The notes: generated from the sequence alone by a model not told the origin. A stretch of DNA of 64,000 bases from an uncultured Pseudomonadaceae bacterium (GCA_937876625.1 CALEGN010000311.1:3454-67453), one strand, 5' to 3'; counted from the first letter of the stretch, positions 13,664-32,873 are shown. Program-made: numbers and translations.

Positions 13664-13730
13664 TGTGGGATGTAAATAAAGATTCATCCGTTTAAATAAA
13701 GTGTCATCCTTACAAATAAAGTTTCATCCT
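13664..13730 (+). repeat. Tn7-type right end: terminal TGTGGGATG plus three 20-bp-phased TnsB-site repeats
   Basis: AAATAAAG-N-TCATCC occurs at 13674, 13694 and 13714 (gtAAATAAAGatTCATCC, ttAAATAAAGtgTCATCC, acAAATAAAGttTCATCC). Closely packed sites are typical of a Tn7R-type end. Confidence 0.85.
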
Positions 13731-14998: not shown

Positions 14999-15181
14999 GA
15001 GGAAAACCTCGATGAAGCTCGAAAAGATGACACTTTATTTGTATGTCAACTGGCGAGCCTGCCGTCCTGAGCACACTCACCTAGCATTAGGATGAGACTT
15101 TAGGTGCAGATTGAGGTGTAAGGCTCCCAGCCAGCCCAGCAAACTCATTCGCACCGGATGCAACTTTATTTGCATCCCACA

Positions 15182-15787
15182 CATGTCACCGATATCCGTG
15201 AACAGTTCCCGATGCGGGTCGAAGATACGATGCGCATCGCCGAGGAGCTTGGCCTGCCCCACGGGCGTTACAAAGGCACTCCGCAGGTACTGACCAGCGA
15301 CTTTCTGGTGGATTTCGAAGATCCCCAGCGTCCGAACATCGCGATTCAGGCCAAGTACAGTGCCGACCTGCAGAAGCCTGAAGTCATCGAAAGGCTTGAA
15401 CTTGAGAGGCGTTACTGGCAGGAAAAAGGTATTCCATGGGTCATCGTCACGGAGCGTGAGGTATCCAAGGTGGCATTTGCCAATATCCAATGGCTCTATC
15501 CTGCCCATGCTGAAGACGATATCGCTCTGGACGATCTCGCCCATTACCAGCAGCTGTTTCTGCTCGAGTTTCAGCGTCACCCAGATCGGAAGCTGACCGC
15601 TATTGCCCAAGGACTGGATACCTCCGGCCAGCTGGAGGCCGGTCAGGCGCTCTATTGGCTACGCCAGTTGCTGGCCCGGCACTGTTTCCTTTTCGATCTA
15701 GACATCCATTACCGAGAGCTGAAGCCGAAAGACCTGGTTGCCAACGCTCATCAAATGCATCAGGAGCTGAGCAGTGCTTCCCGTTAA
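15182..15787 (+). pseudogene. tnsA: tnsA 3' fragment
   Basis: HVTDIREQFP...TSDFLVDFED...AIQAKYSADLQKPEVIERLELERRYWQEKGIPWVIVTE parallels Tn7 TnsA (LDIREQFPL...STDFLVDCKD...AIQVKP...LEKLELERRYWQQKQIPWFIFTD). It continues directly from the 5' fragment once the insert is removed. Confidence 0.9.
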
Positions 15788-17861
15788 TCAGGTGTTCCGG
15801 ATAGGAGAACTGCGAAAGCGCCTGCTGTGGTCCGGCACCGAGCAGGCCATCTGGATCGATATCGATTCGGACACGGCGTTGCCCGAGCCGATATCGGTTG
15901 CAGAGCTGGAGCGTCTGCTCATGGAGCGGGAGCTGGAGAGCATTGTCGATCCCTTCGAGGAGACAGTCCTACGGGAGGCTGTGGAAGATTCTCTTGATCA
16001 GCAGAAGCGTGATGAGGCTTGGGCAATGGTGGCGGATTTTGTGCACGATCCCCAGCTTTTCGTGCGGCGTCCCAGAGGACTCATTGTCAGAGGCATCATG
16101 GAGCGCCATGGTGTTACCAAGCAGACGGTGTATAGGTTACTGAGGCGCTACTGGCAGCGAGGCATGTGCAGGAACGCCCTCTTGCCGGACTATGTCAACT
16201 CGGGCGCCCGTGGCAAGCGCAGAAAGCCGAGCCAGGCCAAGCTGGGCAGGCCCCGAGTGGTGATGGAGGGGAAAGGGAGCAATGTCACGCCGGACATCGA
16301 GCGCATTTTTCGTCGGGTCATCGAGGAGCGCTTGCTCAAGGAAAAACATCCGTCCATTCCGGATGCCTACGCCTCCGGGCTGAACCTGCTCCGTGCTGTT
16401 CTGTCGCAACTACCGACCTCAGAACTGCCTACATTGGGGCAGTTCCGTTACTTCTATGGGCGCGAGTATCACTTCACCGACACCTTGCCATGCAGGGTGT
16501 CCGCAGTGGATTTTGCCAAGGACTTCCGGCCGCTCAGCAGCACATCAACGACCGAGGCACTTGGGCCTGGATACCGCTACCAGATAGATGCCACCATCGC
16601 CGATATCTATCTGGTTTCAGAACATGATCGCAGCCTTATCGTCGGCAGGCCTGTCGTTTACATGGTGATCGACGTGTTCAGCCGCATGGTCGTTGGCATG
16701 TACGTCGGATTCGAGGGGCCTTCCTGGGTCAGTGCCATGGTGGCATTGGCCAACACGGTCGCCGACAAGGTTGAGTATTGCCGCCAGTATGGCGTGGAGA
16801 TCGATGCCAGCGACTGGCCGGTCAAAGGCTTGCCGGATGTGGTGCTGGCCGATAAGGGCGAACTGAATGGCACCAAGGTGGAAGCATTTTCCCAAGCCTT
16901 CGGCGTTCGCATCGAGAATGCACCGGCCAAGCGAGGAGATGCCAAGGGGATCGTCGAGCGTTATTTCCGGACGGTGCAGGAGCGTTTCAAACCCTATGCC
17001 AGCGGAGTGGTCGAGGACACTACCAGCCGGAAGCGGGGTGGCCACGACTACAGGCTTGATGCCAGCCTGACCTTGCCTGAATTTACCCAGATCATCATCG
17101 CCGGCATCCTCCACCACAACAACTTTCACACCTTGAGCAAATACGACAGGACCTCTGGTATGCCGGGCGATCTGCCAGCCATTCCGGTCATGCTGTGGAA
17201 CTGGGGCTTGGCTAACCTGACCGGTCGGCTACGTACTGCGCCCGAGGAGCTAGTGCGGATCAATCTTTTGCCCCATGAGTCGGCCACGGTTTCGGAACTG
17301 GGAATCAGGCTGTTCGGCTGCTTCTACAGCTGTCAGGAAGCAATCAGGGAGGGGTGGTTCCACCGAGGTCAGGGGCGCCGGCCTACAGGGGTAACGGTCG
17401 CATACGATCCGCGTAGCGCCGACCACATCTACCTGCGGCCGTCCAATAGCCTCAAGGACTACTGGGTTTGCGATCTTGCCGATCGTAGTCGGCGCTTCAG
17501 GGGGATGACCTTCTGGGATGTCTGGCTGCTGTCCAGAGAGGAACGACGTAGCGATACCAAGGCAGCTGCACAAGCTTTGGTAGAGAAGGGTAATCTTCTG
17601 AAGCAGATCGAGTCCATCATTGCCCAGGCAGAGGATGCAAGTCCGGTAAAAACGGGTATGACCAAGAAGGATCTGGGAACCCAGATCCGCGAGAACAAGC
17701 AGCAGGAAAAGCGCCAGGAACGCCAGAAAACAGCATTCAAACCGGAGAAAATACAGCAGGAAAAGCCGGCGGAGGTGATCCCATTGCGGGGAGAGAAGCA
17801 GGAAGACTATGCCTTCCCGGGTCTTAGCGACCTGATATTCAAGGAGGAAGAGGATGACTGA
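15774..17861 (+). CDS. tnsB: Tn7 transposase TnsB (DDE, Mu/retroviral-integrase superfamily)
   Basis: VTKQTVYRLLRRYWQRGMCRNALLPDY, YQIDATIADIYLV, VIDVFSRM, LADKGEL, RGDAKGIVERYFRT. Collinear with Tn7 TnsB. GTG start at 15774 overlaps the tnsA end; exact start uncertain. Confidence 0.95.
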   Translation: MLPVNQVFRIGELRKRLLWSGTEQAIWIDIDSDTALPEPISVAELERLLMERELESIVDPFEETVLREAVEDSLDQQKRDEAWAMVADFVHDPQLFVRRPRGLIVRGIMERHGVTKQTVYRLLRRYWQRGMCRNALLPDYVNSGARGKRRKPSQAKLGRPRVVMEGKGSNVTPDIERIFRRVIEERLLKEKHPSIPDAYASGLNLLRAVLSQLPTSELPTLGQFRYFYGREYHFTDTLPCRVSAVDFAKDFRPLSSTSTTEALGPGYRYQIDATIADIYLVSEHDRSLIVGRPVVYMVIDVFSRMVVGMYVGFEGPSWVSAMVALANTVADKVEYCRQYGVEIDASDWPVKGLPDVVLADKGELNGTKVEAFSQAFGVRIENAPAKRGDAKGIVERYFRTVQERFKPYASGVVEDTTSRKRGGHDYRLDASLTLPEFTQIIIAGILHHNNFHTLSKYDRTSGMPGDLPAIPVMLWNWGLANLTGRLRTAPEELVRINLLPHESATVSELGIRLFGCFYSCQEAIREGWFHRGQGRRPTGVTVAYDPRSADHIYLRPSNSLKDYWVCDLADRSRRFRGMTFWDVWLLSREERRSDTKAAAQALVEKGNLLKQIESIIAQAEDASPVKTGMTKKDLGTQIRENKQQEKRQERQKTAFKPEKIQQEKPAEVIPLRGEKQEDYAFPGLSDLIFKEEEDD

Positions 17862-19464
17862 AGGATTCCCGCGCGCAGTTATTCCCCTGGCGCGTTACCA
17901 AGAGCAGCAGCTTCCCGAGTATCAGGACAATCCGCTCATCAGCGCATTGCCTCCGATTCCTGATTTGCAGGAGGTAGTCGGTCTATTGCAGCAGCTTCCC
18001 GGTTTTGAGCCGCAGGAGGCGCATCTGGATGGTCGGCTCAGGGCTCATGCGATTGCCCGTCTGTTGCATGGTTTCTTCCAGCCGCTGAGCCATCACTTGG
18101 AGCTGGAAAGCAAGATCAGCCTGATGATCCGTCAGGGGTACATCGGTCGGAATCCGGCCAGCGGTGCCTGGTATGCGCATCTGCAGAATGGCTATCGTCG
18201 TGTCGAGGAGGAGGATCTGGATGCGGCGGTGTACCAGAGTGTCTCTTCTACGGCCAACAGTCTATCGCTGTTCGGTTGTTCCGGTTGCGGCAAGACGCGC
18301 ACGCTGGAGCGGATCCTGGGTATGTATCCCCAAGCTCTCCATCACCCTGAATACAACATCACTCAATTGGTCTACCTGAAGGTCGACTGTCCCATTGACG
18401 GTGACCTAGATGAACTGTGTCTGAGCTTCTTCAACGAAGCAGACAAAATACTGGGCACCCACTACAGCCGTAGCCACGGACGCAAGAAGCTGGGTACTAA
18501 ACGTCTGCTGGCATCCATGTGCCAGGTAGCCAATCTGCACGCGCTCGGAGTGCTGATCATCGACGAGGTTCAGAACCTCAACGAGGCACGCTCCGGTGGT
18601 GCCGAGAAAATGCACAATTTCTTCGTGTCGCTGGTGAACACCATAGGTGTTCCGATCATTCAGGTTGGCACCCACCGGGCCAGTAAGTTCTTCCAGCGTA
18701 CTTTCCGGGCTGCTCGGCGGGTCTCCGGGCTGGGTAGCATCCGCTGGGATAGATTGCCTCAGGACGAGCACTGGAGGCGTCTGTTGAAGCGGCTCTGGAA
18801 GTATCAGTGGCTGCGAAATGCGGCGCCGCTGGATGACGAACTAGAGGCGACCATGTACGACCTCACTCAAGGGGTCATGGACATCGTCATCAAGCTGTTC
18901 GCGCTGGCTCAGATTCGGGCAATAGTGACAGGGATCGAGTGCATCAAGCCGCTGTTGCTGCGCAGGGTTTTCGAGGACGAGTTCAAGCCGGTCCATCCGA
19001 TGCTGGCGGCTTTGCGGAGTGGTAGACCTGAACTGATCGCCAAGTATGACGACCTGCTGATGCCTGAGATCGAGGGACGGTTGCTGACCCTGACGCGCTC
19101 ACTGGATCACGTCGCTCAATCGAAGCCGCCGGCCCCTCCGGCTGATGACAAGGCGAAGCGGCTGGCAACTCTGCTCGAAGATATGGAAATCCCGAGGGAC
19201 ATCGCCATTCCCATGGCCGATGAATTGCTGACGGAAAATCCGGACATCCCGTTGGCAGTCCTGATTCATAAGGCCACGGCCTACCTCGCGCAGGACGCTC
19301 CCAAGAGGCCTGGAATTTCCAGGGTTAAGCGTACGCAGTGGGGGTGTTTATCCGAGGAGGATCTGCGTCGACGTTATGCCGATGGGCCTGAGAGCGAGGC
19401 CTATGAAAGATTCAAGCAGGCTGGCCTGATCTTCGATCTGCGACCTCTGCTGAGGGCAAGCTGA
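17854..19464 (+). CDS. tnsC: Tn7 AAA+ regulator TnsC
   Basis: Walker A GCSGCGKTRT, Walker B LIIDEVQNL, and NPLISALPP, MIRQGYIGRNP, VHPMLAALRSG, all collinear with Tn7 TnsC. 8-nt overlap with tnsB. Confidence 0.95.
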   Translation: MTEGFPRAVIPLARYQEQQLPEYQDNPLISALPPIPDLQEVVGLLQQLPGFEPQEAHLDGRLRAHAIARLLHGFFQPLSHHLELESKISLMIRQGYIGRNPASGAWYAHLQNGYRRVEEEDLDAAVYQSVSSTANSLSLFGCSGCGKTRTLERILGMYPQALHHPEYNITQLVYLKVDCPIDGDLDELCLSFFNEADKILGTHYSRSHGRKKLGTKRLLASMCQVANLHALGVLIIDEVQNLNEARSGGAEKMHNFFVSLVNTIGVPIIQVGTHRASKFFQRTFRAARRVSGLGSIRWDRLPQDEHWRRLLKRLWKYQWLRNAAPLDDELEATMYDLTQGVMDIVIKLFALAQIRAIVTGIECIKPLLLRRVFEDEFKPVHPMLAALRSGRPELIAKYDDLLMPEIEGRLLTLTRSLDHVAQSKPPAPPADDKAKRLATLLEDMEIPRDIAIPMADELLTENPDIPLAVLIHKATAYLAQDAPKRPGISRVKRTQWGCLSEEDLRRRYADGPESEAYERFKQAGLIFDLRPLLRAS

Positions 19465-19465
19465 C

Positions 19466-20964
19466 ATGTACTTCCCCAGGCTCTACCCGGACGAACTGCT
19501 CTACAGCGGTATTGCCCGGTGTCGAGTACATCTGGGGATTGGCAAGCACAAGACTTTGCTGCACATGCTTTTCGGTGACAGCAAGGTTGCCGCGATCACC
19601 GATCTGCCAACACACCTGACAGCTCTGGCGAACAATACTGGTCTTGACCCAACAAACGTGATCAAGAATCACACTCTGTTCCCGCTCTATGCCCCTTTCA
19701 TTCCGCCGGAGCGCCGTACCGATCTTTTTCAGGCCATGCTAGCTCCCAACCGGACGACGATTGGCCTGTCAGGGGCATCGACGGCCTTGGTCAAATGGCC
19801 CGAGTGGCTGCGTTACTGCCCGGTTTGCTTCGAGGGCATGGCGGCTCGTTTTGGTGAGCCCTACTGGCGGCGTAGCTGGCAGATCCAAGGGATAGATGCC
19901 TGTGCAGAGCATGGCTGTCAGCTCCTGAACTCACCCATCCCATTCCGTCGAGCGCAGCGGCATGAGTTTCATCCAGCCTCTCCACTGTTTCTGCCTCGTG
20001 ATCTTCGCGTGACCCCCGCGGGCGAAGAGGCTATCAGGCTCGCCAAGGCTGCTATGCAGTTGCTGGCGCTCGAAGAGGTGCAATCGCCTACGGGTGCTGG
20101 ACCAACCTGTACCGGTACCTGGCTACAGAGTGTGGCGCCAGGCGCGGCCGACAGGTCAGGGCTGAAGTCATTTGGGAGAAGGTCTTGGCATCCAATCGCA
20201 GGGATTGGCTTGCTGCTAACGGTCTGCTGACATCCGGAGAGTGTCCACCTTGGCTGTTTGCGATGTTCAGGAAGCATCGCAAGGGATTCAGTGCTCTGCA
20301 GCATCTGATTGTCTGGACCAGCCTGCGCCCTGGTCAGCATGTTGGCTCGCTGATCAGTGAAGCGAATACTCACCAGATCGACCTTGCCTCCGAGCGGTCA
20401 GTGCAGATGCTCCCTGCTGAGTTTGAGCATAAGCAGCAATACCGAACCATTTGGCTGCGAGCACTGGCTTATCACGGTGGAGCCAAAGCAGCCAGGCAAG
20501 ACGGAGCAGGGGCATGTTATGCCTAGCTTTATCGTCATGACCGACATTGGTTGATGGTTACGAACCAGGTCAGGCAGCACCGACAGGGCAACAACAGCCA
20601 CATCGACTGGGGAGCGCGCGACAGAAGGTTGGTGCGCCTGCTGATCCGGATTGGCAGAGGTAGTGAAGAAGACCTGGGCTTTCCGCGCAGGAGCCGCAAC
20701 TGGTTCCTGCAGCAGCTACCCCATCGGGCATCAGTTGAGCACCATCTCGGTCAACTGCCTCTGTGCCGCGCTTTCCTGGATCGCTATGCCGAGTCTGTCG
20801 GCGAGTATCAGATCCGTCGCCTGACTGCAGCGATGCTGGAGGATGTACAGACAGGCATAACGTCCAGGCGCTGGGAGCTGGAAAAGCGTTGTGGATTGGA
20901 AAAAAGCAGGATGGTACCGCTGACCACTGCGTTCGTTAGATTGATAGGAAGATGGATTGAATAG
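19466..20964 (+). pseudogene. tnsD: tnsD (TniQ-family attTn7 target selector), inactivated by one frameshift and one amber codon
   Basis: N-terminal TniQ domain with CPVC...CAEHGC. The frame switches near 20085-20092 (…EEVQSP | AYGCWTNLYRYLATECG…). TAG at 20524-20526 interrupts …CYA*LYRHDRHWL…, where Tn7 TnsD has YAWLYRHDRDWL. Total span is 1499 nt, one short of a multiple of 3. Confidence 0.85.
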
Positions 20965-22579
20965 GACTGTATTTCGTCAGATCCCGAACGGATCCAAATT
21001 ACTGGCCGTTGGAAATTTTTTCAGGGCCCCGACTCCGACAGCCGAGTGGCGCTTGGCGGCTCTCTTTGAGCGTAACGGTCAGTTGCAGCTGCAGCAGTTC
21101 GCAAAGGAGATGTCGTGTGTCTTGGCTGTTGGTCGCGAGTTTCTTGGAGACGAAGGGCCTCCCTACCGTCCTAGTGGTTTCAAGAAGACCGTGGTGCTTC
21201 CTGCAATAGATACCTGGCGGGAGCGGCAGTTGGGTGAGTGTCCACGTCTGGCCAGAAAGCTTGCTGCAAATCCTGAGATATCAGGACAGCGATGCTTTGT
21301 GTTTGAGGTCGATGGTCTGACCGTCTGGTTGCCGAAATTCGAGCTGGCGCGAAAAATGTTCTTCCACGCAGCCTTTATCGTGCGTGCAGCCTTCGAACCG
21401 AATGGCTTGGACATGGCCTTCACGCTCTACAGAGAGGACGATGTTGTTCATATCCATACGCCCGCGAAGACAGGTGCACCAAGTCAGCTTCTCAAAATCA
21501 GGGGATACCGAGACCATTTCAGTTGGCTGCTGCTGAATCAGGATGTGAAGCGATCCTTCGAGTCAATCTGGCAAAGCCTCAACCAAGGGCAGGAGCGGGT
21601 ACCGCAAGGTTCGGCGTATGCCAGGTGGCAGTTCGACTTTCAGGCACCCCCTTCCCTCGCGGGTACCTCCATGGATGTACGAGGTCCCTTTGATCCGGAA
21701 AGCAACGAATTGCTGGTCTGGGAGATCGAAAAGCTTCAGGGGCTCCGGTTTACCCATCGTGGCGATGTTTTTTTCCACCACCCTGCTCTCAAGTTACCAG
21801 TCAGGGGGGAAAAAACAGACTGTGTATCTGTGCCATCGGGAGCTGAAGAAGTGGAGGTGGATGCTGATGAAGAGCCAACGGCTGCCAAGGAGCAGAGGTT
21901 GATTCATCTGCCCGTTGAGGGAGTTACGTTTGATGCTCAGATGCGCACCAAGATCGCCTACAGCGGGGAGCGTGCCAACGGTCATGGCAAGATGGTCGAC
22001 GATGAGCAATGCCCGAGCAGAGAAAGCCAACTCTTCGGCGTGGCTGATCCTGTGAGCGAGGGCAGCATAGCGTCAGGAGAATTCCAACAATTGGGTGAGG
22101 GAGAGGGTGATGGGGACGAGCATGAACGGCTTGCAGATCGCTTCTCGCTGCTCCGAGAGATTCTTGAACAAATCACCCAAGAGTCTGGAGTTGCGCTGGT
22201 AGCACTGGAAGTGAGGCCTCTGCCGCCCGTTCCACGTTGCAGCTACCACATGATCGATCACGAAAAATCACGCTGTTATCTGCTGGCAAGGTTCAAGCTG
22301 CAAAACGGCGATCAACGCTACCTTCTAGAAATAGATACCTCAGACAACCGGAAGACCATGTCAACGCGGATCATGGGCTTCAAAGCAGGTGTTGAGGCAG
22401 GAAAATGCATAGACAGGATCTTGAGGGAGACAGTGAAAGGCTCGTTGCGTTGGCCAGGCACCATGGCGAAGTACTGTGAGCCTTTGCACTCTGTGCATCA
22501 CCCGAAAGAAAGCTCATCTGGGGCCAACCATACCAGGGTGTTCGACTGGAAGCAGCGCATACGCGCTGCCCTGAGCTGA
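20957..22579 (+). CDS. tnsE: TnsE (alternative target selector)
   Basis: FELARKMFF, SWLLLNQDVKRSFESIW, WQFDFQAPP, YLLEIDTSDNRKTMSTRI and GSLRWP...HHPK parallel Tn7 TnsE (LELARSLFL, VWLFSDQDVMDSYESIF, FSFDPPP, VLLEVDASDGVKMLSTKV, SSLNWP...NHPK). 540 aa against 538 aa in Tn7. TTG start per the track. Confidence 0.85.
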   Translation: MNRTVFRQIPNGSKLLAVGNFFRAPTPTAEWRLAALFERNGQLQLQQFAKEMSCVLAVGREFLGDEGPPYRPSGFKKTVVLPAIDTWRERQLGECPRLARKLAANPEISGQRCFVFEVDGLTVWLPKFELARKMFFHAAFIVRAAFEPNGLDMAFTLYREDDVVHIHTPAKTGAPSQLLKIRGYRDHFSWLLLNQDVKRSFESIWQSLNQGQERVPQGSAYARWQFDFQAPPSLAGTSMDVRGPFDPESNELLVWEIEKLQGLRFTHRGDVFFHHPALKLPVRGEKTDCVSVPSGAEEVEVDADEEPTAAKEQRLIHLPVEGVTFDAQMRTKIAYSGERANGHGKMVDDEQCPSRESQLFGVADPVSEGSIASGEFQQLGEGEGDGDEHERLADRFSLLREILEQITQESGVALVALEVRPLPPVPRCSYHMIDHEKSRCYLLARFKLQNGDQRYLLEIDTSDNRKTMSTRIMGFKAGVEAGKCIDRILRETVKGSLRWPGTMAKYCEPLHSVHHPKESSSGANHTRVFDWKQRIRAALS

Positions 22580-22795: not shown

Positions 22796-25700
22796 ATGGG
22801 CAAGAAGTCCCGAGAGAAGCGGGAGCGGAGGCTTGCACGAATGGAGGCCGACCATGGCCTTCTGTTGCAGGAGATGCTCGGGTTTCACGGGAAAATCGCT
22901 TACGAGAAAGATCAGGGACATTCATTTCGTAAGCGTCTCGAGGCGACCCGTGCGTTACTTCGCCAATATGAGCGTCTCGACGCAGCGATTGCCTTGAGTG
23001 TCTCCGAGCTATGGCTGGCCAATGCTGGAAGCCCTATCAAGCATATTTTCGCCTGGGGTGTTCTGCTAGATCTTCCGCACGATGACCAAGGCGGGATGCC
23101 AATCGCTAGCTATGCAGATTTCAAAGCGTTTGCAGAGGCACTGTACGAGGCATGGCCCGAGTTCCCGATGCTTGAGGACTTCTCCTCCGAGGCCGACTGG
23201 GGTGAAACCAAAGTACGCCTTGGCCAAGCTTTCGTTCCGATGTTCTACGGTAGCTGCATTGAGCGCACACCTGACTTCGTAGAGGCATTTCGCATCACTT
23301 ACGCACAGGTTCCAGAGGCACAAGCCCACATGGACCTCGCCATCGCATTGCAAGCACGGATCATCGAGTCGATGCTCGACCTGGGGGGCGCCCCCGCTGG
23401 GGAATCACAGCAAGCCCACGTCGAGGTGCCTCCCGAGGACTTTTGGCTGGCTTGTAGGTTAACGCTTCAGCAAATCGGTACCGATATTGCCGACTGGCGA
23501 GACAAGGCAAGGGGAGCACTCGATACTCGCTTTGGTGCTTTCAAAGCGCCGCTGACATGGCGCGCTTTCGGCGATGCGGTAATGCAGGGGGTGGCCCTCC
23601 CCTTTCTAGCGGTCGAAAGCGACGGCACCTGGGTGCCTATGTCGGCTCGTAACGCTCCTGGAGTCGTTGTTGACCATTGGGCCAACAACGCAATGGTTGA
23701 GGTCGGCGCTCATACGCATCGCAGGCTTGCCCTGTTCGTTGCCGAGCGATTTCCAAGGACGGTCGTGGGGCCTCTGGCGCTCGTCATTGGTGGCTCCATC
23801 TGTGAAGAGCTCCCTATCAGTTGCGTCATCTCAGCCAACTCTGGTGTGTATCTCATTTGCGCATGTGACCACGCATCGAATGAGCGGCTGTCAATCGCAG
23901 CGAAAGACGTGTACGGCAAAGTGAGGCGCGGCGCGCCGATCCACTTCCGTCTCGCAGACGGGCGCGGACTCATGTTATCTAAAGATGGAACCAATGGACC
24001 TAGTGCAGATGAGCTTCGAATAGTCATTGTGGTCACCCAAGCCGGCACTGCATTGGGCTCCATATCTGCGCCCGAGCGGCCCGCGCGCCTACTGCCGTTA
24101 GCGGACTTCATTACCATCTTCGACAGTTTGAGTGATCTCGACGAATTGGAGTGCTACTGGGAGTTCGTCGACTCTCAGAGAGGCTCTCTTAGCCTCTTCT
24201 CGAGCGGGCCTGCCGACTTGTATGCGTCATTCAAGGACACAAATGGCGTACTTGTCGAAGGGGCGATTTCCCCCACTCTTATCGGACTGGATCCTCACTG
24301 GGGCACTTCTTGGCGCTTCAAGGCACTTGCTGACTTCTGGTCGCGTGCACCAAGCGTTTTTCCTGATGGCTCTGTGGGCTGGCGGCTGAGCAATGGAACT
24401 AAAGGTGTCGTTGATCTCCAATCGCGCCATCACAAGGCAGTGGCATACTCAACATCTGTCGGCAGCTGCACAATTCAAACCCTGGTGGAAATCTCTGAAG
24501 GTCTGGGAATCGAGGATGCCCGCATGCTCGACCTCTTCGCCCAACTCCTTGCGGATTGCACCTATCGTTGCCGTGAGCTGATGTCGGACATCCCGCTGTT
24601 TCGGCAGCAGCATGTCCTGTTCATCTGTGGGCTCGCCCACTCTAGCTCTGTTGGCAATGATGAAGCTCCTCAGCCAATAGAGGGATTCGAGCGGGCAGTA
24701 ATTTCAGCGGAAGAGGATGCAGCTCGTAAGAGCATATTGCATCTGCAGGTCGACGCTCGTGCAGTGCTTGCAGGCCTAAACGCGGCCAAAGACGGCTCGT
24801 TCGAAGTTCGATGCTTACTGGAGACACTCGAAAGGTGTCACGACGTGTGTGGGCTGGAGTTGCCCATCGGTTTTGGAGAGCGGCTACGTGGCAGAGCATC
24901 GGAGCCGGCTCGCTACCACTTGAGGGTCGCTGCCCGAAACGTTGATGTCCCTGACTACGTGGAACCCGTAATCCCCTCGCCCGCTAACTACAAGCTTGCT
25001 CGCAAGCATTTGGCGGCCGAAATCATGGCGCTCGATTTGGCTCCAGGGCGCTATGAGCTTTCCGATGCCAAGGCAAGAATTGATCCTGCTGGCGCTCGTT
25101 TGCGTCTTCACATCGAGAATCGGCTGGCATCGCTCGACAGGTACCAACTTCTCCGGGCTTTCATTGAGCAGCACGATGCGCTTCTTGTAACCGAGAGGAT
25201 GAAGATTCAGCGCACCCGTCAGAGCCTAGCTCATGATGTGGACTACGACAGGCTAGAGGCCATTGAACAAGCCCGCAAAGACTACGGCTCCGTAGCTCGT
25301 CACTACCGATACCTACTGGAGAAAACTGTTAGCTCGCCGGCAACCGGTACTGAGGACGCCACTGACGATGTACTGCGTGAGCTGGTTGGCCTGGTTGACT
25401 GGTACATGGTGCTTACAGGGGCCAGCGACGTCCTTCACAACGGCATCGACGTTGGTGGCGTTGAGATTGACGACTCGTACATTCCAGAGGTCTTCTACTC
25501 GACTGGAGCCGATGACCGTGAGGCGGAATTTGCACGCGAGTATGCGAAATCAAGGCTAGGGCTTGGTGCAAACAGCGAAGATGCTGTGGAGGGTGCATCG
25601 GAGGACTTGCTGTCTTCAGAGAAGTTCAAGAGTGCTTTTGCAGCTGACGTGGGGTTTGACCTGCAAAATCTAGTCACTGCTCTCGCAGTTTTGTCACAAG

Positions 25701-26593
25701 CGCAAAGGTACGGGTTTGGCGATGAGCTCTCGCTATCTTATGCCGCTTCTCCAAGCCGCGTCGCGCAAGGACTGGCCGACAGCATTGAGATGCTTGATTT
25801 TGCCGAGGCGGAAAGGATAGTGACGTTCCTCACTCTTTCGGAGCAAGGCGTTCGCAGGCTGTCCGGAAGGAGTGTCGACGAGATCGATGTTCCTTACTGG
25901 GAGCACAGTAAGCGAATCCATCGATACGCGATCAGGCCGCTGGTTGTCGATGGCACAAACTTGCGTTGGGGAGCAGAGACGGTCAGTCGGTCGATGTACA
26001 ACTGGATGTCAGCAGTGCGGGACGGCTACCTCCCTGCGGACTTCGATTGGCCCCATGTCCAACCAGTCATACGGGAGGTCAAGGAGAGTATCGAGAATCG
26101 GCTGGAGCTCCGCACCGAGGAGATATTCCTTCGGCACACTCCATTCGTTCATCGAGGCATCGACTTTTTCCGGAAGTTCCGCAGCGAGGGGTTCGAGGAC
26201 GTCGGGGACTTCGACGTATTCGCTTATTGGCCAGATGCGAACCTACTCGTGACCGTGGAGTGCAAGTACAACCAGCCGCCCTACACAGTGAAAGATGGCC
26301 GTCGACTCCGTGACCGAATATTCGGCAAAGCTGAGGACGACAAGGCTGGGCAGTTCAGTCGAATTCTTCGCCGAAGGCAGTTTCTCGAGAAAAACCGCGC
26401 AAGGACGCTTGAGCTGTTGAAGTGGCCGAAGTCGGAGGCCAAGCCTTTCCGGCATGTGGAGCTCTACGTGAGCCGTGACGTGTACTACTGGATGGTTCAT
26501 CCGCCGTACCCTGTTCCGACCAAGTTCGTGCGAGTGGACACACTGGATACCTGGATCAAGACCGAGCTCATCACGTCTCGCCCCCATGTCTGA
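22796..26593 (+). CDS. Cargo gene A: 1265-aa uncharacterised protein with a C-terminal PD-(D/E)xK-like nuclease motif
   Basis: GGGAGA (22783-22788) lies 7 nt before ATG 22796. No P-loop seen. Near the C-terminus, GDFDVFAYWPDANLLVTVECKYNQ (about 26204-26275) fits a D...E-x-K restriction-endonuclease-like core. The rest is not recognisable to me. Confidence 0.85.
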   Translation: MGKKSREKRERRLARMEADHGLLLQEMLGFHGKIAYEKDQGHSFRKRLEATRALLRQYERLDAAIALSVSELWLANAGSPIKHIFAWGVLLDLPHDDQGGMPIASYADFKAFAEALYEAWPEFPMLEDFSSEADWGETKVRLGQAFVPMFYGSCIERTPDFVEAFRITYAQVPEAQAHMDLAIALQARIIESMLDLGGAPAGESQQAHVEVPPEDFWLACRLTLQQIGTDIADWRDKARGALDTRFGAFKAPLTWRAFGDAVMQGVALPFLAVESDGTWVPMSARNAPGVVVDHWANNAMVEVGAHTHRRLALFVAERFPRTVVGPLALVIGGSICEELPISCVISANSGVYLICACDHASNERLSIAAKDVYGKVRRGAPIHFRLADGRGLMLSKDGTNGPSADELRIVIVVTQAGTALGSISAPERPARLLPLADFITIFDSLSDLDELECYWEFVDSQRGSLSLFSSGPADLYASFKDTNGVLVEGAISPTLIGLDPHWGTSWRFKALADFWSRAPSVFPDGSVGWRLSNGTKGVVDLQSRHHKAVAYSTSVGSCTIQTLVEISEGLGIEDARMLDLFAQLLADCTYRCRELMSDIPLFRQQHVLFICGLAHSSSVGNDEAPQPIEGFERAVISAEEDAARKSILHLQVDARAVLAGLNAAKDGSFEVRCLLETLERCHDVCGLELPIGFGERLRGRASEPARYHLRVAARNVDVPDYVEPVIPSPANYKLARKHLAAEIMALDLAPGRYELSDAKARIDPAGARLRLHIENRLASLDRYQLLRAFIEQHDALLVTERMKIQRTRQSLAHDVDYDRLEAIEQARKDYGSVARHYRYLLEKTVSSPATGTEDATDDVLRELVGLVDWYMVLTGASDVLHNGIDVGGVEIDDSYIPEVFYSTGADDREAEFAREYAKSRLGLGANSEDAVEGASEDLLSSEKFKSAFAADVGFDLQNLVTALAVLSQAQRYGFGDELSLSYAASPSRVAQGLADSIEMLDFAEAERIVTFLTLSEQGVRRLSGRSVDEIDVPYWEHSKRIHRYAIRPLVVDGTNLRWGAETVSRSMYNWMSAVRDGYLPADFDWPHVQPVIREVKESIENRLELRTEEIFLRHTPFVHRGIDFFRKFRSEGFEDVGDFDVFAYWPDANLLVTVECKYNQPPYTVKDGRRLRDRIFGKAEDDKAGQFSRILRRRQFLEKNRARTLELLKWPKSEAKPFRHVELYVSRDVYYWMVHPPYPVPTKFVRVDTLDTWIKTELITSRPHV

Positions 26594-29500
26594 GAACATC
26601 AAGAACACTGCAATCACTGCAGCCGGCTACATTTACCAGAATCGGCAGGGCCTCAAGGTTCTATGCGATTGGCTCGACGCGCCGGCTCGCTACAGTCGGG
26701 TGAAATTCGAGTGCGACGACGAAACAGAAGCGCCGCAGGGGCTGGACGATCTCGTCATCGAGCGGAGTGATGGCCTCGTTGACCTTCAGCAGGTCAAATT
26801 CACCCCGAATCCTGAGGCACATCCTCTTTCCTGGGATTGGATGCTCGAGAAGTCCGGCAAGACCGACCGGTCGAGGTCGATGCTTCGTAAGTGGTTCGAC
26901 GCTTTCAAGAAGCTCGATCCCGCGCGCATTGGCGAGCTCTCGCTCACAACAAACCGCCGGCCGGATGCCGCCATTGAGGCCTGTTTGGATGCTGGCAGGA
27001 TTTCCTTCGCCAAGATCCCTGAGCCACAGCGCTCGGAGGTCATCGCAGAGATTGGCAGCGCAGAAGAGTGCGAGGTTTTCTTCAGCCAGTTGCGCATCCG
27101 GCACAGCGACAAGGGATACGTTGCGCTGGAGCACGAAGTCGCTTCGCGCCTTCGGCTGCATGGCACCGCTGAAGGTATCGCGAACCTCAAGGTCGTGGCC
27201 CTGAACTGGGCAACGCAGAAGAGTCTCCCGGCTCCTGATGGCTGGATCACTCTGGAAGAGGTTCGTGCCATCCTCAGGGCGTTGCCGCCTGCGCCTCTGC
27301 CAGAGGACTTTGTGGTCCCGAAGGGGTACGAGGTGCCCGATGCGACGTTCCACGAGGAGTTCGTCCGGGACGCGATCAATGCTGCTGGCAAGGCGATCGT
27401 TCTGACGGGACCGCCCGGCCGTGGAAAGAGCACTTATCTGAGCGCGCTGTGCGACTCTCTCGCCGAACAAGGCATCCCGACGGTCCGCCATCACTACTTT
27501 CTCTCGACGACAGAGCGTGGGCGTGACCGGGTGAACAGCTACGTGATCGAGCAATCCATCAGCGCGCAGGTCGAGCAGTTTCACGAGGGCGTCGCGAGGG
27601 GGCCTGGGGGGCTGCGTGTGCTCCTGGAGGCGAGCGCCTCCCACTACAAGGGGCTGGGCAAGCCCTTCGTGCTCGTCCTAGATGGTTTGGATCACGTCTG
27701 GCGCATCAACGCTCACGACAAGCGGCCGTTGGACGACCTTTTTTCCCAACTGATCCCTTGCCCGGACAACATGGTACTGCTCGTCGGCACTCAACCTGTG
27801 GATGACGCCCAGTTGCCGACGGATCTGCTCGCCTCAGCTCCGAAGGTCGAGTGGCGCACGTTGCCCGCGATGTCTGAGAACGCAGTCCTTTCCTTCCTTC
27901 GTAGGGCGGTTAAAGAGGGCAGGCTCACGACAGGCTGCGAGAATGAGAGACAGGCTGAAGAACAACTACAAGATGCAGCATCCGCGCTCCGCTCAAGAAC
28001 CAATGGCCACCCCCTTCATGTTATTTACGCGGCTGCAGAGCTAGAGCATGCAGGGCGAAATCTGTCCCGCTGGGATGTTGAGAAGTTGAAAGGGGATCTG
28101 AGCCAAGATGCCAAGTTCTACTATGCATCGTTGTGGGAGAGGCTTCCACCAAGCCTGAAGGACGTGCTGCGGCTCGTCTGCGCCTTCCCGTTTTTCTGGC
28201 CGAAAACTGCGTTTTCTGAGATAGCTTCTGCAATCAAGATGACGGTGCCCGAAGTTGGGAGCGTGGAGCATCTGCTTCATTCATCAGCAGCAGGACTGAA
28301 GGTCTTCCACGAGAGTCTGGCGGTCTTCGTGCGCTCGACAGCAGACTACGAAGCACGTATCACGGAGCTGATGCCAGTGGTCGCGCGCTGGCTCGAGTGC
28401 TCTGCTCCCACCTCGCTACGCGTCAACTGGCTATGGACGGTTCAAGCGAAGCTGGGTGCCCCCAAGAACCTCATCACGGGGCTCACCCGTGACTGGATCA
28501 TGCTGCGGCTTGAGGAAGGGTACCCAGAGTCGTTGTTTGACACCTTGCTATCAGATGCCTTGGTTGCAGCGCTCCAGACTGCCGAATTCGCAGATGCTTA
28601 TCGTCTGCTGCATCTCAAGGCCCGGATGGTTGGTGGCAGCGAGTACCAGATGCAGAGCGACGATCTGGCCAGGCTCATCTCCTTCACGTTGACGCTAGCT
28701 GTGGAGGAAGGCGTAGTACGTGAGGCCGTTGCCTCCAGACATGAGACTGACATCCTGCACGTTGCCGCGCTTGGGCTGGCCCTGCGCGCTCGTGGGGACC
28801 AGATTTTTGCTGAAACATGCGGTGAAGAGGCGCTTCGTCGGTTCAGGGGCTTGAGCCGATTCTCCAGCAGATACGTGTCGGGCACTGGAGCTGATGAGCT
28901 CAAGTTCCTAGTCGACGCATTCGCTCGACTTGGCGCCATCGGTGCCACTCCTGAGTCGCTCGCCAGGTTGGTGGTTGATAACAGCCCGGTCGTTTGGCTG
29001 CCTCGTGTCCAGATGCTGGTAGAGGAGGGCAACCTGGATGACTTGATGACGGTTGTTGCTTCGCTTTCCAGAGGGGAGAGAAAGAACATCATTAGTGATG
29101 CCTGTGTACGTGCGGCAGCGAAGGCGGGAGTAAGTATTGCAGAGCGCGATGACTTCAACGAGCTTGCCCGAACTCCCTTTGTTGCTGCCGTGGAGGCGGT
29201 GCTCACACGTTCCTCCAAACCGCTGAATGAGCCGATCCCTGTGGAGTGGCTGAAGGGCGACTACTCCGAGCGCAAGGAAGATCTGGCGGCACTCGCGCAC
29301 CACTGGTTCTTCAGCGCTGTGCATCTGGGTCTGTGCATGGCCGCAGAGGGCCAGACTGCCTTCGAGTATGCGCGAGCCCCAATCTATGAAGGCAGAGAAA
29401 ATATAACCGGCTTCCTCGATGCGCTCTCTGATGTCGCTGCCCAAGTTGCGCTTCGCTGGTGGCGCGGAGAGTTTGTGGATTTCCATGAGCTTTTCGCGCT

Positions 29501-31010
29501 GCTTGAGCCAGTAGAGTTCCGATGGTTCAGGCAGAGCCATGACTGGAGTTGGGCGGCTGATGATTTCAGACGGGCATTGCCTTGCATCGCTTGTGACATC
29601 TACCTCGGTAGCACCTTGCTGAAGGGGTGTGATGATGTAGATATGACTGCGGAAACCATGCATGCAGCAGGCCAGTGTGTCTGGTTTGACGGAGCATCAT
29701 TCTGCGCTCAGTACGCAGCCAGCACACTTACTCGAATGACCGACGAAGCGGCTGCGATGCTTGTTCAGTCGCAACGATCATTATTTGATGAGGACGTTGA
29801 GGAGGAGACCAGTGTTCGCCTCCAGACGCCGTTGCAGCTTTGCGCGATTGCGCTGGCTCACAATTTGATGCCGGAAGCGCGAGAACTCTGTAAGCAGACT
29901 TGGGAGTTAACTACCGGCTTTGCACACCGTAAAGACCCGTCGCTGAACAACACAGTTAACGCAATCGGCTACCTGGTAGACGTTGCGCCAGCGGATGCCT
30001 GCCGGTTGCTCGGTATGATCGCGCCGCAGATCCATCATGTTCTGAAGTACACGGATGGAAAGGGCACGCGTCATGTTCTGGCGCAGGCTGATCGGTTGCT
30101 GGCGAAGCTGAAGCCTGCGGCACTGGTAATCAAATATGAGGAGCACACGCACGAGGGCGACTGGTCGCTGGCAGAGGACAGTCTGCAAGCATACGTGGAG
30201 CAGGGGGTAAAGGAGGGTTGGTCTCTGGATGCACTGATGCGTACAGGGCTCCACTCTGGAATACAGGATACACTTCAGCAACTGGCTCAAGAAGGCAGTG
30301 CAATCGCTGCAAAGCAGCTCCAAGTTCTCCAAGAGTATGCCGGTTGGGATCTGGGTTTATTGAGGCATCAAGAGCGTTCTGGAAGTGGCCTAGATGGCAA
30401 GCCTTATGATGGCGACGTCACGACCTTTACGCCCGAACAACTGAATGAGCTGCTCGCTAGTTTGTCAGGGAGTAACTACGGCGAGCGCGATGAGCTTCTT
30501 CGTGCCTGGTATCTGCACTGGGAAGCTCAAGGCCAGGGCAGGAGATTACTCGGTACACTCGACGACCTGCTTCTCTCAGAAGAGGGACGGCAAAAGGACG
30601 TACTGGTCTTATCCGATCTTGCCTTCCACACTCGGCGCAGGCTGAGCGGAGTGAAAGCAGCATGGAAGTATCTTGTCCGTGCTCAGATCCTGAGCGGCGG
30701 GTGGATCGGTTATATGGAGCATGAGGCCAAGACCTGTAGCAGGCTTGACCTGGTTGTTAAGCACTATCCGACGCGCTGCGACGAGTTCGTTGTCGAGACA
30801 ACCTATGGCATGTTCAAGGACCCGGTGCCGTCGCGTGTCGCACCCAACGATGCGATGGTCTATTTCTATGTGCGGCAGGGGCGAACTGAGAAAGCCGTGA
30901 GGTTTGCAGAGACTATGGTCAATTGCATCATTGAGGATACTCGTACCCTCCCACTTGAGCCCCCTCGCTGGGCGACTGAGCTGGCCTTGCCCTCCATGTC
31001 GGAGGTTTGA
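26586..31010 (+). CDS. Cargo gene B: 1474-aa Cap4/DUF4297-like nuclease + STAND (NACHT-like) NTPase + long helical C-terminal region
   Basis: ATG 26586 overlaps the gene A stop (ATGTCTGA). N-terminus: AAGYIYQNRQG...VKFECDDE...DDLVIERSDGLVDLQQVKF (GYxYQ / E / DD / QxK pattern). Walker A LTGPPGRGKST (27408-27434). Walker B FVLVLDGLDHV (27666-27695). About 1100 further residues are helical with no obvious repeat family. Confidence 0.85.
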   Translation: MSENIKNTAITAAGYIYQNRQGLKVLCDWLDAPARYSRVKFECDDETEAPQGLDDLVIERSDGLVDLQQVKFTPNPEAHPLSWDWMLEKSGKTDRSRSMLRKWFDAFKKLDPARIGELSLTTNRRPDAAIEACLDAGRISFAKIPEPQRSEVIAEIGSAEECEVFFSQLRIRHSDKGYVALEHEVASRLRLHGTAEGIANLKVVALNWATQKSLPAPDGWITLEEVRAILRALPPAPLPEDFVVPKGYEVPDATFHEEFVRDAINAAGKAIVLTGPPGRGKSTYLSALCDSLAEQGIPTVRHHYFLSTTERGRDRVNSYVIEQSISAQVEQFHEGVARGPGGLRVLLEASASHYKGLGKPFVLVLDGLDHVWRINAHDKRPLDDLFSQLIPCPDNMVLLVGTQPVDDAQLPTDLLASAPKVEWRTLPAMSENAVLSFLRRAVKEGRLTTGCENERQAEEQLQDAASALRSRTNGHPLHVIYAAAELEHAGRNLSRWDVEKLKGDLSQDAKFYYASLWERLPPSLKDVLRLVCAFPFFWPKTAFSEIASAIKMTVPEVGSVEHLLHSSAAGLKVFHESLAVFVRSTADYEARITELMPVVARWLECSAPTSLRVNWLWTVQAKLGAPKNLITGLTRDWIMLRLEEGYPESLFDTLLSDALVAALQTAEFADAYRLLHLKARMVGGSEYQMQSDDLARLISFTLTLAVEEGVVREAVASRHETDILHVAALGLALRARGDQIFAETCGEEALRRFRGLSRFSSRYVSGTGADELKFLVDAFARLGAIGATPESLARLVVDNSPVVWLPRVQMLVEEGNLDDLMTVVASLSRGERKNIISDACVRAAAKAGVSIAERDDFNELARTPFVAAVEAVLTRSSKPLNEPIPVEWLKGDYSERKEDLAALAHHWFFSAVHLGLCMAAEGQTAFEYARAPIYEGRENITGFLDALSDVAAQVALRWWRGEFVDFHELFALLEPVEFRWFRQSHDWSWAADDFRRALPCIACDIYLGSTLLKGCDDVDMTAETMHAAGQCVWFDGASFCAQYAASTLTRMTDEAAAMLVQSQRSLFDEDVEEETSVRLQTPLQLCAIALAHNLMPEARELCKQTWELTTGFAHRKDPSLNNTVNAIGYLVDVAPADACRLLGMIAPQIHHVLKYTDGKGTRHVLAQADRLLAKLKPAALVIKYEEHTHEGDWSLAEDSLQAYVEQGVKEGWSLDALMRTGLHSGIQDTLQQLAQEGSAIAAKQLQVLQEYAGWDLGLLRHQERSGSGLDGKPYDGDVTTFTPEQLNELLASLSGSNYGERDELLRAWYLHWEAQGQGRRLLGTLDDLLLSEEGRQKDVLVLSDLAFHTRRRLSGVKAAWKYLVRAQILSGGWIGYMEHEAKTCSRLDLVVKHYPTRCDEFVVETTYGMFKDPVPSRVAPNDAMVYFYVRQGRTEKAVRFAETMVNCIIEDTRTLPLEPPRWATELALPSMSEV

Positions 31011-32452
31011 TGGACGAGCTTCGCATTCTTGTTGCCCGCCTCGGATGGCCTTCTACGTCCGCACGGTGGTGGGCTATGCAGGAGCTGGCGGCCTGGCTGG
31101 GCTTTCCTGCTATGCGGGCCGAAACTGAGGCTGCGTTGTTTCAGTTGTTGCGCTCGCGCAAGCTTGAAGCCGAGGTTATCGAAGCTCTCTGCATCTTCTG
31201 GATGGCAGCACAGGGACATGGCTACTCACCTGCACTAGAGCTTGCCGATAGCATCCCGAAGCCATCCCTGCTTTCAGACTTGCTTGTGGCGGATCTTGGG
31301 CTGCCGATTCAGGCTGGCGATATGGGCTTGAAGGAGGTGCCTCATGACTTTGTAGTTCCAGATGACTTCGATGGTGTGCAAGGCGTCGATTTGCCAAGAA
31401 TTTTCCATACGTCCATGAGCAGGCTCGAGCACTATTCTGGACTTCCTTTCGTCCGGCAGATGGCTTTTGAGTGGACTGAGAATCGAGCAGCTTATCCAGA
31501 TGTGCCATACCAAGGGGACATGCGGCACTTCACGCTACCACTCGGTAACGGTTTTAGTGTCCATCTTTCTGCGCGCGCAGCCCTTCGCGCCATTTCTGCG
31601 TACCTTCGTACTCTGGCAGTGGCAAGGCAGTTTTGGGAAATGCCGACAGGATTGGCTCATGAAGAGTCGCTTTTGGCCCTGCCGCTCCATCCGACTCTGG
31701 CTTTACTTAGGCCGCAGCGCCCGGACTGGTTCCCAGCATCGAGAGGGCTCGATGGGGATGCTGAGTCAGTCGAAGCTGCAATTCGAGCACTCCCTGCTCG
31801 TATTGGGGCAGTTCGTCCGGGTGACGAGCTCATCGCTTTCAGCTCGCCAATCGTGATATCTGAGGAACGATGTGTAGAGGTTTCCCTCGTGCGGTGGTCG
31901 CAGGCTGCTGGTAGTAGCGTTAACGATGCGGATTTGGCTGCGTATCTCGATGCTTTCTGGATGCGTGGGCCGATGTTCTCCAGCGCAGCGTCAGATCCTC
32001 TCAATACAATCACCATGGTAGTTCCAGCAGCTCTCGAACGACTGATGGATGACAGCTGCCAGGCTTGGCCTTTGGCTGGAGCGCTCGGCTACGAGCGGAT
32101 GGGATATCTCCAGCATGATTTATATCCATCGCGGCTCTTCTTCCCGACGATGTCTGGTTTGCATGAGCTTGAGATCACACCTCGTGATGGGCAGCTAGAA
32201 GTCAAGGTAGAGGGTCAGGTTGTTGCTGATCTTTGCTATTGGAACGCAGGGTGGGGGCCAGCACGACCAAGGCAGCTTGGTGGAAATTGTGGGACGGCAC
32301 TCACCTCTCGAGGCACGGCCTACCGCGAGGGAGCTGGTTCTGAAAAAGGACCGCTGCGCGCGTTCTATCTTTGGCAGGTGCGTACGCTGCACCGTAGCAG
32401 CAGCTTTGGCGAGTTCAGCGAAACACTAGCGACTGGCGCAATATTCGTTTAG
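31010..32452 (+). CDS. Cargo gene C: 480-aa uncharacterised protein
   Basis: ATG 31010 shares one nt with the gene B stop (TGATG). Uninterrupted 480 codons in the same compositional regime as A and B. No motif I can assign. Confidence 0.8.
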   Translation: MDELRILVARLGWPSTSARWWAMQELAAWLGFPAMRAETEAALFQLLRSRKLEAEVIEALCIFWMAAQGHGYSPALELADSIPKPSLLSDLLVADLGLPIQAGDMGLKEVPHDFVVPDDFDGVQGVDLPRIFHTSMSRLEHYSGLPFVRQMAFEWTENRAAYPDVPYQGDMRHFTLPLGNGFSVHLSARAALRAISAYLRTLAVARQFWEMPTGLAHEESLLALPLHPTLALLRPQRPDWFPASRGLDGDAESVEAAIRALPARIGAVRPGDELIAFSSPIVISEERCVEVSLVRWSQAAGSSVNDADLAAYLDAFWMRGPMFSSAASDPLNTITMVVPAALERLMDDSCQAWPLAGALGYERMGYLQHDLYPSRLFFPTMSGLHELEITPRDGQLEVKVEGQVVADLCYWNAGWGPARPRQLGGNCGTALTSRGTAYREGAGSEKGPLRAFYLWQVRTLHRSSSFGEFSETLATGAIFV

Positions 32453-32648
32453 TTCGCTCGCTGTAGGCTGATAACGCCGAGCCGCATCGCCACCTGGAGT
32501 TCGGCACGCATCGATCAGGCGGCCATCGTGGGGGCAGATAGTGGAGATCGAGACAGGCAATATTGATCTTACTTGTACGTTTTTAGAGGAAGGGGGTTTT
32601 ACGCTATCCCCCTGCTCCCAAGGGCTCGGAAGCTGCCTGGTCATTAAT

Positions 32649-32868
32649 AGGATGAAACTTTATTTTCACGATTTTCGGCGTTGACCGAAAATCAGGATGG
32701 TACTTTAACGCCTTTGATCGTCACCCCGGCAAAGGCGCGGTGAAGTACCTGATCATGCTTTTTAGTCGTGTAAGTCATTGTTTTTAAACATTTGTCTGAG
32801 GATTAAACGCTCATCGTGATTCCCCATCTGCTCCCAGCGTTAGGATGAGATTTTATTTTCATCCCACA
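32649..32868 (-). repeat. Tn7-type left end with dispersed TnsB-site repeats
   Basis: AGGATGAAACTTTATTTTCA (32649-32668), degenerate AGGATGGTACTTTAACGCC (32694-32712), and terminal AGGATGAGATTTTATTTTCATCCCACA (32842-32868). Three spaced sites are typical of a Tn7L-type end. Confidence 0.8.
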
Positions 32869-32873
32869 ACTGT

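Follow-up and report, generated by a model that had tools for sequence, protein, structure and literature searches.

The DNA analysed here, a stretch of 64,000 nucleotides from an uncultured Pseudomonadaceae bacterium (GCA_937876625.1 CALEGN010000311.1:3454-67453; hereafter the window), contains a Tn7-like element whose cargo consists of three long genes that we call A, B and C. All lie on the + strand and together they fill the space between the end of tnsE at 22579 and the left end of the element at 32868. Gene A (22796..26593) is an open reading frame (ORF) of 1265 amino acids (aa), gene B (26586..31010) encodes 1474 aa counted from its ATG, and gene C (31010..32452) encodes 480 aa. The stop codon of A overlaps the start codon of B within ATGTCTGA (26586..26593), and the stop of B overlaps the start of C in a TGATG (31008..31012) preceded by GGAGG; both junctions were read directly. 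The longest ORF for B opens further upstream, at a GTG (26475), and the mechanical ORF for C opens at a TTG (31007). The ATG starts picked for B and C in an initial annotation of this DNA are the starts found in orthologues. That annotation had described three same-strand ORFs, joined by overlapping stop and start codons into one operon that occupies the cargo space, and the description stands: the coordinates, the strand and both overlaps are confirmed, and a single operon-like cassette in Tn7 cargo is supported. Scanning 22400-32900 gave no promoter-like sites, and terminator-like sites below the shuffled expectation, both scans being uninformative. Since database relatives are many (267 for A and 312 for C at 58-98% identity) and the order A-B-C recurs in other genera, these are real genes and not chance ORFs.

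We propose that the cassette places two anti-phage modules in tandem, namely a divergent Upx protein (A) and an Avs1-like STAND nuclease split over two genes (B and C), both of which would sense the phage large terminase. We regard this identification of the parts, together with the general mechanism of terminase sensing, as quite probable. A role of the three-gene cargo in anti-phage defence is very likely, and on this point the initial annotation made a sound call.

Gene B would provide the N-terminal 1474 aa of the split protein, i.e. the nuclease, the NACHT module and the first part of the helical sensor. Its effector domain (aa 4-127; 26595..26966) is assigned to the Cap4/LmuA-type PD-(D/E)xK nucleases by a match to the PADLOC LmuA model (E 1.1e-6), and carries the motif DDLVIERSDGLVDLQQVKF (D..QVK, aa 54-72). 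The NACHT/STAND NTPase module (27396..27911) reaches 41.1 bits with Pfam NACHT over aa 271-442, against a cutoff of 26.7, and contains a Walker A motif GPPGRGKST (aa 275-283; 27408-27434) and a Walker B motif VLVLDGLDH (aa 362-370; 27669-27695). The D-D..Q-x-K residues and both Walker motifs are invariant columns in alignment A4. PADLOC also matches B to Avs1b (E 4.3e-9, aa 253-681). The tripartite layout of effector, NTPase and TPR-like sensor is present but spread over B and C, with ~800 aa following the NTPase in B, a stretch that the initial annotation had seen as a long helical tail. The initial annotation was thus right to see in the middle protein a STAND protein of Avs/NLR type with effector-NTPase-sensor order, and the motifs that it listed for A and B are all there (A aa 1137-1157; B aa 54-71, 275-283 and 362-370).

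Gene C had been taken for a separate, large and uncharacterised partner, and this part of the initial annotation has to be abandoned. Placed end to end, B and C (1954 aa) align with single-chain proteins of 1907-1987 aa in one high-scoring segment pair of ~1945 residues, at 26-45% identity; with the protein P0246 the identity is 45%, query 1-1945 matching subject 1-1933. In a profile of 1942 positions built from 15 single-chain relatives, B corresponds to 1-1460 and C to 1469-1938, and PPR/TPR-like repeats at positions 1407-1442 lie immediately before the split. Avs1b is matched by 12 of these 15 relatives (best E 6e-18) and no other Avs model is, while the same N-terminal region as in B matches the PADLOC models of the CBASS 'Effector Endonuclease' (13 of 15) and SAVED-PDDEXK (12 of 15). 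Hence B and C are predicted, from this collinearity, to be one Avs-type protein split in its sensor. C is not a separate component, because it lies at the C-terminus of the single-chain proteins with which B and C are collinear, and would be the detached last 480 aa of the Avs sensor, with a helical N-half and a beta-rich C-half. The best match in the PDB of an AlphaFold2 (AF2) model of C is 8dgc, Avs3 bound to the PhiV-1 terminase (E 1e-4, prob 1.0). C has no match by sequence in PADLOC, Pfam, NCBIfam or the PDB, profile searches of the PDB with the single-chain relatives and with the broad C family returned no Avs match but only PPR-repeat and P-loop noise, and a PDB sequence search with B found neither Upx nor Avs. 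Within the PDB, the link of C to Avs3 therefore comes from the structure comparison only.

The break between B and C is not an accident of the window genome, since the form of the junction is shared across loci from ~30 species of Gamma- and Betaproteobacteria. TGATG is the commonest form, most others have a stop codon abutting the ATG, and in many of these loci GGAGG lies 5 nt upstream of the ATG of C. A search of 1.84 billion representative proteins with a C-family profile gave 395 relatives, most of which are stand-alone proteins of ~480 aa. Among the best 150, about 20 are longer, at 1860-1990 aa, and have the C-like region at the very end of the chain. Many public records of C-family proteins bear the names 'multidrug DMT transporter permease' or 'DMT family permease' (e.g. 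P0157, P0180, P0184, P0192, P0205, P0221, P0233, P0240). We rejected this label for C, in which no 19-residue window exceeds a Kyte-Doolittle value of 1.6 (maximum 1.06). The naming looks like a propagated misannotation, given the lack of any transmembrane-like segment and the correspondence of C to the C-terminal part of an Avs sensor.

Gene A has no Pfam domain, and the initial annotation had left it as another uncharacterised partner with a C-terminal D...ExK motif. The motif was correctly seen and the first description was not, for A is, as far as profiles and a structural model can tell, a divergent protein of the named Upx family. It would consist of a large N-terminal and middle region, the putative sensor, followed by a C-terminal PD-(D/E)xK nuclease. 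The AF2 model of aa 66-1265, made from the family alignment, matches 9wuf ('Cryo-EM structure of Upx') in a Foldseek comparison with the PDB (E 5.9e-21, prob 1.00, 1296 aligned columns). This is the only significant match, the runner-up having an E of 0.27. Zhou et al. 2026 (PMC13099982), who solved the Upx structure and described a three-domain fold (N-terminal, middle and C-terminal domains, NTD-MD-CTD), found no other structural homologue, and the full-length local match of A to such a fold is therefore specific. Scanned singly, 32 of 35 A-family members match the NCBIfam model NF042954 (Upx_antiphage; best E 4e-5), and the alignment with A is collinear, aa 774-1157 corresponding to model positions 764-1150. 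The predicted nuclease core, GDFDVFAYWPDANLLVTVECK (GDFD..VECK; aa 1137-1157, 26204..26266, + strand), is identified by its invariant residues and by the alignment to the Upx model: D1138, D1140, E1155 and K1157 are invariant across 35 homologues, and the PADLOC Upx model aligns its positions 1137-1177 with aa 1117-1157 of A. The ExK of A thereby falls within one or two residues of E1176 of SeUpx. Sequence searches of the PDB with A singly, and with the A-family profile, gave no Upx match but only PPR-repeat and P-loop noise, so that within the PDB A is linked to Upx only by structure. A tblastn search of plasmids with A returned one distant lactococcal match and nothing else. This is an 892-aa hypothetical protein beside IS981 on the Lactococcus cremoris plasmid pFI430 (NC_025249.1, 3942-6620), which is 21% identical to aa 716-1208 of A (E 3e-7) and may be a truncated Upx-like protein.

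How tightly A is bound to B and C can be judged from other genomes. A scan with the C profile, limited to one genome per species, found 40 loci, and a scan of metagenome contigs with the A profile found 74. In every one of the 40 loci that is long enough to show both, C is immediately preceded by B. A precedes B in ~19 of the 40, about a dozen have no co-oriented gene upstream of B, and in two an unrelated protein of 508 aa takes this position, with remnants of it in three more. Among the 74 metagenome loci, B follows A in 19 and no adjacent B is found in 38 despite room downstream. A-family genes without B-C amount to 29-38 loci, among them copies that share 84% and 78% identity with the A of the window. 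At the large ORFs downstream of stand-alone A genes (e.g. 1651 and 498 aa in locus L100), no matches to the B, C or A profiles were found. When 54 A sequences were arranged in a neighbour-joining tree, the coupled copies fell into two clades, one large and one small, and all deeper branches were uncoupled; parsimony gives ~5 changes of coupling state, probably four with locus L017 misclassified as alone. Hence B and C are obligate partners. A can be separated from B-C as a module, but in one clade of A their pairing is stably inherited. The initial annotation had considered the three proteins locked together in fixed stoichiometry; this stands for B and C, which are always together, and is overstated for A, given that about a dozen species genomes have B-C and no A, and 29-38 loci have an A-family gene and no B-C.

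The alternative upstream gene, which we call A', is complete in two loci (L007, 4061-5587; L022, 4052-5575) and present as remnants just upstream of B in L009, L010 and L011. It overlaps the start of B by 8 nt, as A does. A faint Mrr_cat match is its only family signal, together with a C-terminal EFDV..VQCKNN motif with an Mrr-like QCK. Comparison of A' with the A family by hhalign was not significant (probability 0.3%), yet a similar FDV..V(E/Q)CK(Y/N)N motif is visible. In L010 and L011 the remnant of A' lies between A and B, which suggests that one upstream partner was replaced by the other. A different rearrangement is seen in the Klebsiella sp. WOUb02 plasmid NZ_CP170106.1, where an intact C is preceded by fragments of A (aa 773-1258) and of B (aa 1-711) in the opposite orientation.

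The triplet itself is a recurrent arrangement. The order A-B-C is found in Pseudomonas, Halomonas, Marinobacter, Pectobacterium, Photorhabdus, Serratia, Morganella, Providencia, Vogesella and Marinomonas, and both B and C are intact in relatives at 49-95% identity, with many invariant residues. The 8-nt overlap of A and B is also present in L003, L004, L005, L008 and L033; elsewhere A and B are separated by gaps of 3-12 nt, and by 273 nt in two loci. The contexts are mobile or defence-related. Orthologues of A are encoded, for instance, on JAMJEZ010000034.1 of Pseudomonas sp. NW5 and on CP009769 of Pectobacterium brasiliense. In Pseudomonas sp. NW5, whose proteins are 94-98% identical to those of the window, the cassette directly follows a type I hsdR gene. 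The Pectobacterium copy sits in an integrase island that also encodes an HNH/ScoMcrA protein and a helicase, and the Halomonas copy beside an insertion sequence (IS) element. Providencia rettgeri (L043) carries an intact Tn7-like element, glmS being followed by TnsA (276 aa), TnsB, TnsC, TnsD (504 aa) and TnsE, and its cargo is the same A-B-C at 58-62% protein identity to the window. The cassette has thus travelled with this family of Tn7-like elements across genera.

These assignments can be set against recent work on both modules. Evans et al. 2026 (Nat Commun, August 2026, PMC13601566) showed for three diverse Upx homologues that the large terminases of phages activate them, and for two that the gene alone confers phage defence. 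According to the same study, activation proceeds through the ATPase domain of the terminase, which Upx is predicted to bind in a locally unfolded state, and the C-terminal ExK nuclease is required, the E1176A change killing SeUpx. Avs1-3 are described in the literature as sensors of terminase that oligomerise and thereby activate their effectors. The main text of Evans et al. also mentions an association of Upx with a split-TPR Avs1, as a genomic observation without experiment, to which its Discussion does not return. Among the literature searched, this is the only work that names both Upx and Avs1. The layout mentioned there, a Upx homologue adjoining an Avs1-like STAND protein whose helical sensor is made by two genes, is that of A and B|C. 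The initial annotation had recognised no named system in this combination; going by the main text of Evans et al., the pairing of Upx with a split Avs1-like protein is as such not new, having been noted in print in 2026.

Other known systems resemble parts of the cassette. B shares with the bNACHT or bacterial NLR-related proteins a NACHT domain above the Pfam threshold and the effector-NACHT-sensor layout. These proteins, reportedly treated in Kibby et al. 2023, form a broad class rather than one specific family, and the members so far characterised are known as single genes. Taken together, B and C resemble Avs1 and Avs3 (SeAvs3, PDB 8DGC) in the order of effector, NTPase and large helical sensor and in a total length of ~1950 aa, Avs1b being the sole Avs model matched by B and the Avs3-terminase complex the best match of the C model. 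They differ in having the sensor in two polypeptides and a Cap4/LmuA-type effector, and sequence similarity is confined to the NTPase region. A resembles Upx (SeUpx, PDB 9WUF; Gao 2020) in its length of ~1260 aa, in the full-length fold, in the collinear match to the hidden Markov model (HMM) and in the position of the C-terminal ExK. Yet its structure-based identity to SeUpx is only ~13%, its score lies far below the NCBIfam equivalog cutoff, and A is translationally coupled to a STAND protein whereas SeUpx stands alone; the nuclease activity and the trigger of A are predictions. The AVAST type 1 operon of Erwinia piriflorinigrans (Avs1a-Avs1b-Avs1c) also has three genes, with a nuclease upstream of an Avs1-type STAND protein, but its metallo-beta-lactamase (MBL) and protease domains are absent from A-B-C.

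From these homologies one may sketch how the cassette would work. The first module would be A, in which one chain would combine a large sensor region with a C-terminal PD-(D/E)xK nuclease. The second would be B and C, an Avs1-like STAND/NACHT protein made from two translationally coupled genes, whose products would reassemble non-covalently into a complete sensor. Binding of the phage large terminase by this sensor would lead to ATP-dependent oligomerisation and to activation of the N-terminal Cap4-like nuclease. By analogy with Upx, A would independently bind the ATPase domain of the terminase and switch on its own nuclease, and either nuclease event would degrade DNA and abort the infection. 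The coupling might then serve redundant detection of one indispensable phage protein through two unrelated modes of recognition. Keeping both modules together plausibly makes phage escape harder, since two structurally unrelated sensors would recognise the same essential protein.

Naturally, several observations weigh against this proposal and it must be taken with care. All the HMM links, of A to Upx and of B to Avs1b, are weak. A itself scores 12.6 bits with NF042954 (E 0.014), under an equivalog cutoff of 1900 bits, and it is therefore a distant member of the Upx family and not a SeUpx equivalog. The Avs1b match of B, at 21.6-32 bits, covers the NTPase region only and is far below the 1500-bit cutoff of NCBIfam. 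The structural models are mediocre. That of A has a predicted local distance difference test (pLDDT) score of 67.7 and a global template-modelling (TM) score of 0.18, so that the packing of its domains is not trustworthy; that of C has a pLDDT of 61.6 and a TM of 0.33 (TMq). Both fold matches rest on the local 3Di statistics of Foldseek. The correspondence of the B-C family to the 'split-TPR Avs1' of Evans et al. (PMC13601566) is inferred from the main text of that paper. The terminase trigger and the abortive outcome are drawn wholly from homology, and Zhou et al. 2026 (PMC13099982) proposed for Upx a different trigger, gp16, and a dual nuclease with single-stranded DNA (ssDNA) exonuclease activity; the gp16 trigger is disputed in the main text of Evans et al. 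(PMC13601566). Finally, the stable and translationally coupled pairing of A with B-C within one A clade is a hint that the two modules may depend on each other to some extent.

This last point bears on the view of the initial annotation, according to which the three proteins would all be required parts of a multi-component NLR/Avs-like system not described before, with A and C as co-sensor, second nuclease or regulator. The gene order is maintained with overlaps or short spacings, the coupled A copies are grouped in a single large clade in which losses are few (~5 changes by parsimony for the 54 sequences), and neither A nor C has a strong match in PADLOC 2.0. But the collinearity of C with the C-terminus of single-chain relatives leaves no extra component, and A belongs to Upx, a single-gene system. 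Moreover, B-C does without A in ~12 species genomes and follows a different 508-aa gene in two, A-family genes lack an adjacent B in 29-38 loci, even in copies 84% and 78% identical to that of the window, and a Upx/Avs1 pairing already appears in the main text of Evans et al. (PMC13601566). We thus consider three obligate subunits unlikely. A milder form, restricted to the coupled clade, would make A functionally interdependent with B-C, i.e. a three-protein terminase-sensing machine rather than two stacked systems. A, predicted to act on the unfolded ATPase domain of the terminase, and the split Avs1 sensor, acting on the folded terminase, would then meet on the same molecule, or the two modules would license each other's nucleases. 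The division of the sensor might, in addition, permit one C subunit to be swapped for another and specificity to be retuned. We think this rather unlikely.

One might also speculate that B|C is the decaying remains of a full-length Avs gene, a pseudogene in which a nonsense mutation or a frameshift has interrupted the reading frame and no functional C product is left. Single-chain forms of ~1950 aa do exist, and the host transposon is itself decaying, with tnsA interrupted and tnsD frameshifted. This is at odds with the same split position and the same TGATG or TAA-ATG junction, often with GGAGG upstream, in ~30 species of Gamma- and Betaproteobacteria, with the predominance of stand-alone proteins of ~480 aa among the 395 C-like representatives, and with the integrity of both halves and their many invariant residues at 49-95% identity, all of which make decay highly improbable. 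It is also very improbable that the cassette is the original three-gene AVAST type 1, in which an MBL pro-nuclease (Avs1a) acts with a trypsin-protease-STAND protein (Avs1b) and Avs1c, and the upstream nuclease is activated by proteolysis. The number of genes, the STAND protein in the middle, the upstream nuclease gene and Avs1b as the only Avs HMM match would all fit. However, at E<=0.1 none of the three proteins matched an MBL, trypsin/protease, Avs1a or Avs1c model of Pfam, PADLOC or NCBIfam, and the N-terminus of B is a Cap4/LmuA-type PD-(D/E)xK nuclease and not trypsin-like. Furthermore, Avs1a is a 45.8-kDa MBL pro-nuclease cleaved by the protease fused to Avs1b (PMC12799240), unlike the 1265-aa A. 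A tandem of a divergent Upx and a split Avs1-like STAND nuclease thus remains our preferred account.

The element that carries the cassette is Tn7-like by its TGTGGG.. inverted ends, its TnsB-site repeats, the presence of tnsABC with tnsD and tnsE, and its insertion downstream of glmS (11807-13639, identified with Pfam). The right end (13664..13729, + strand) starts 25 bp after the glmS stop and has three TnsB-site-like repeats spaced by 20 bp. The 3' part of tnsA, tnsB, tnsC, a frameshifted tnsD and tnsE follow at 15158..22579 on the + strand, as identified with Pfam and with tblastn searches using intact Providencia Tns proteins. The left end (32648..32868, - strand) has the terminal TGTGGGATGAAAATAAA and internal repeats, and glyQS lies beyond it. 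The G+C content of the element is 56.6%, against ~63% in both flanks, and the 5-bp sequences flanking it, GCACT and ACTGT, are not an exact duplication. The tnsA gene is interrupted, with pieces left at 13784-14023 and 15173-15739, by a miniature Tn7-like element of 1171 bp (14011-15181). This insert has inverted TGTGGGATGCAAATAAA ends of its own, contains TnsB-site-like repeats and is flanked by an exact 5-bp duplication of the target (CATGT); its cargo is an ORF of 114 aa and a PIN/VapC toxin gene (14588-14998). The tnsD gene (19466-20964) is broken into fragmented ORFs, aa 4-214 of the Providencia TnsD matching 19472-20092 and aa 218-494 matching 20098-20937 in two frames. The broken tnsD and the interrupted tnsA suggest that the host element has lost its autonomy. 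The left end is abutted, with only ACTGT in between, by another Tn7-type end that faces outward, TGTGGGATGAAAATAAAGTTTCA (32869-32896), apparently all that remains of an earlier tandem insertion at attTn7. Elsewhere in the window there are a Pseudomon-1/ErsA small RNA (42987-43107; Rfam RF01719, 66.7 bits) and, far from the element, a weak TnsC-like tblastn match (56718-56912; 32% over 75 aa, E 6e-5) that is probably an unrelated AAA+ ATPase. The small RNA fits a Pseudomonas chromosome and, like the 94-98% protein identity to Pseudomonas sp. NW5, points to a host of this genus.

With these results ~10 kb of 'hypothetical' cargo gains a concrete annotation, and the widespread DMT permease mislabel of C homologues can be corrected. 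Across Gamma- and Betaproteobacteria the cassette of Upx and split Avs1 is carried by Tn7-like elements and by integrase and restriction-modification islands. Its remaining interest lies in the biology of the coupled, split arrangement, namely in the lasting translational coupling, within one clade, of two unrelated predicted sensors of the same phage protein, and in how a STAND sensor made of two polypeptides would assemble and signal in comparison with its single-chain relatives.

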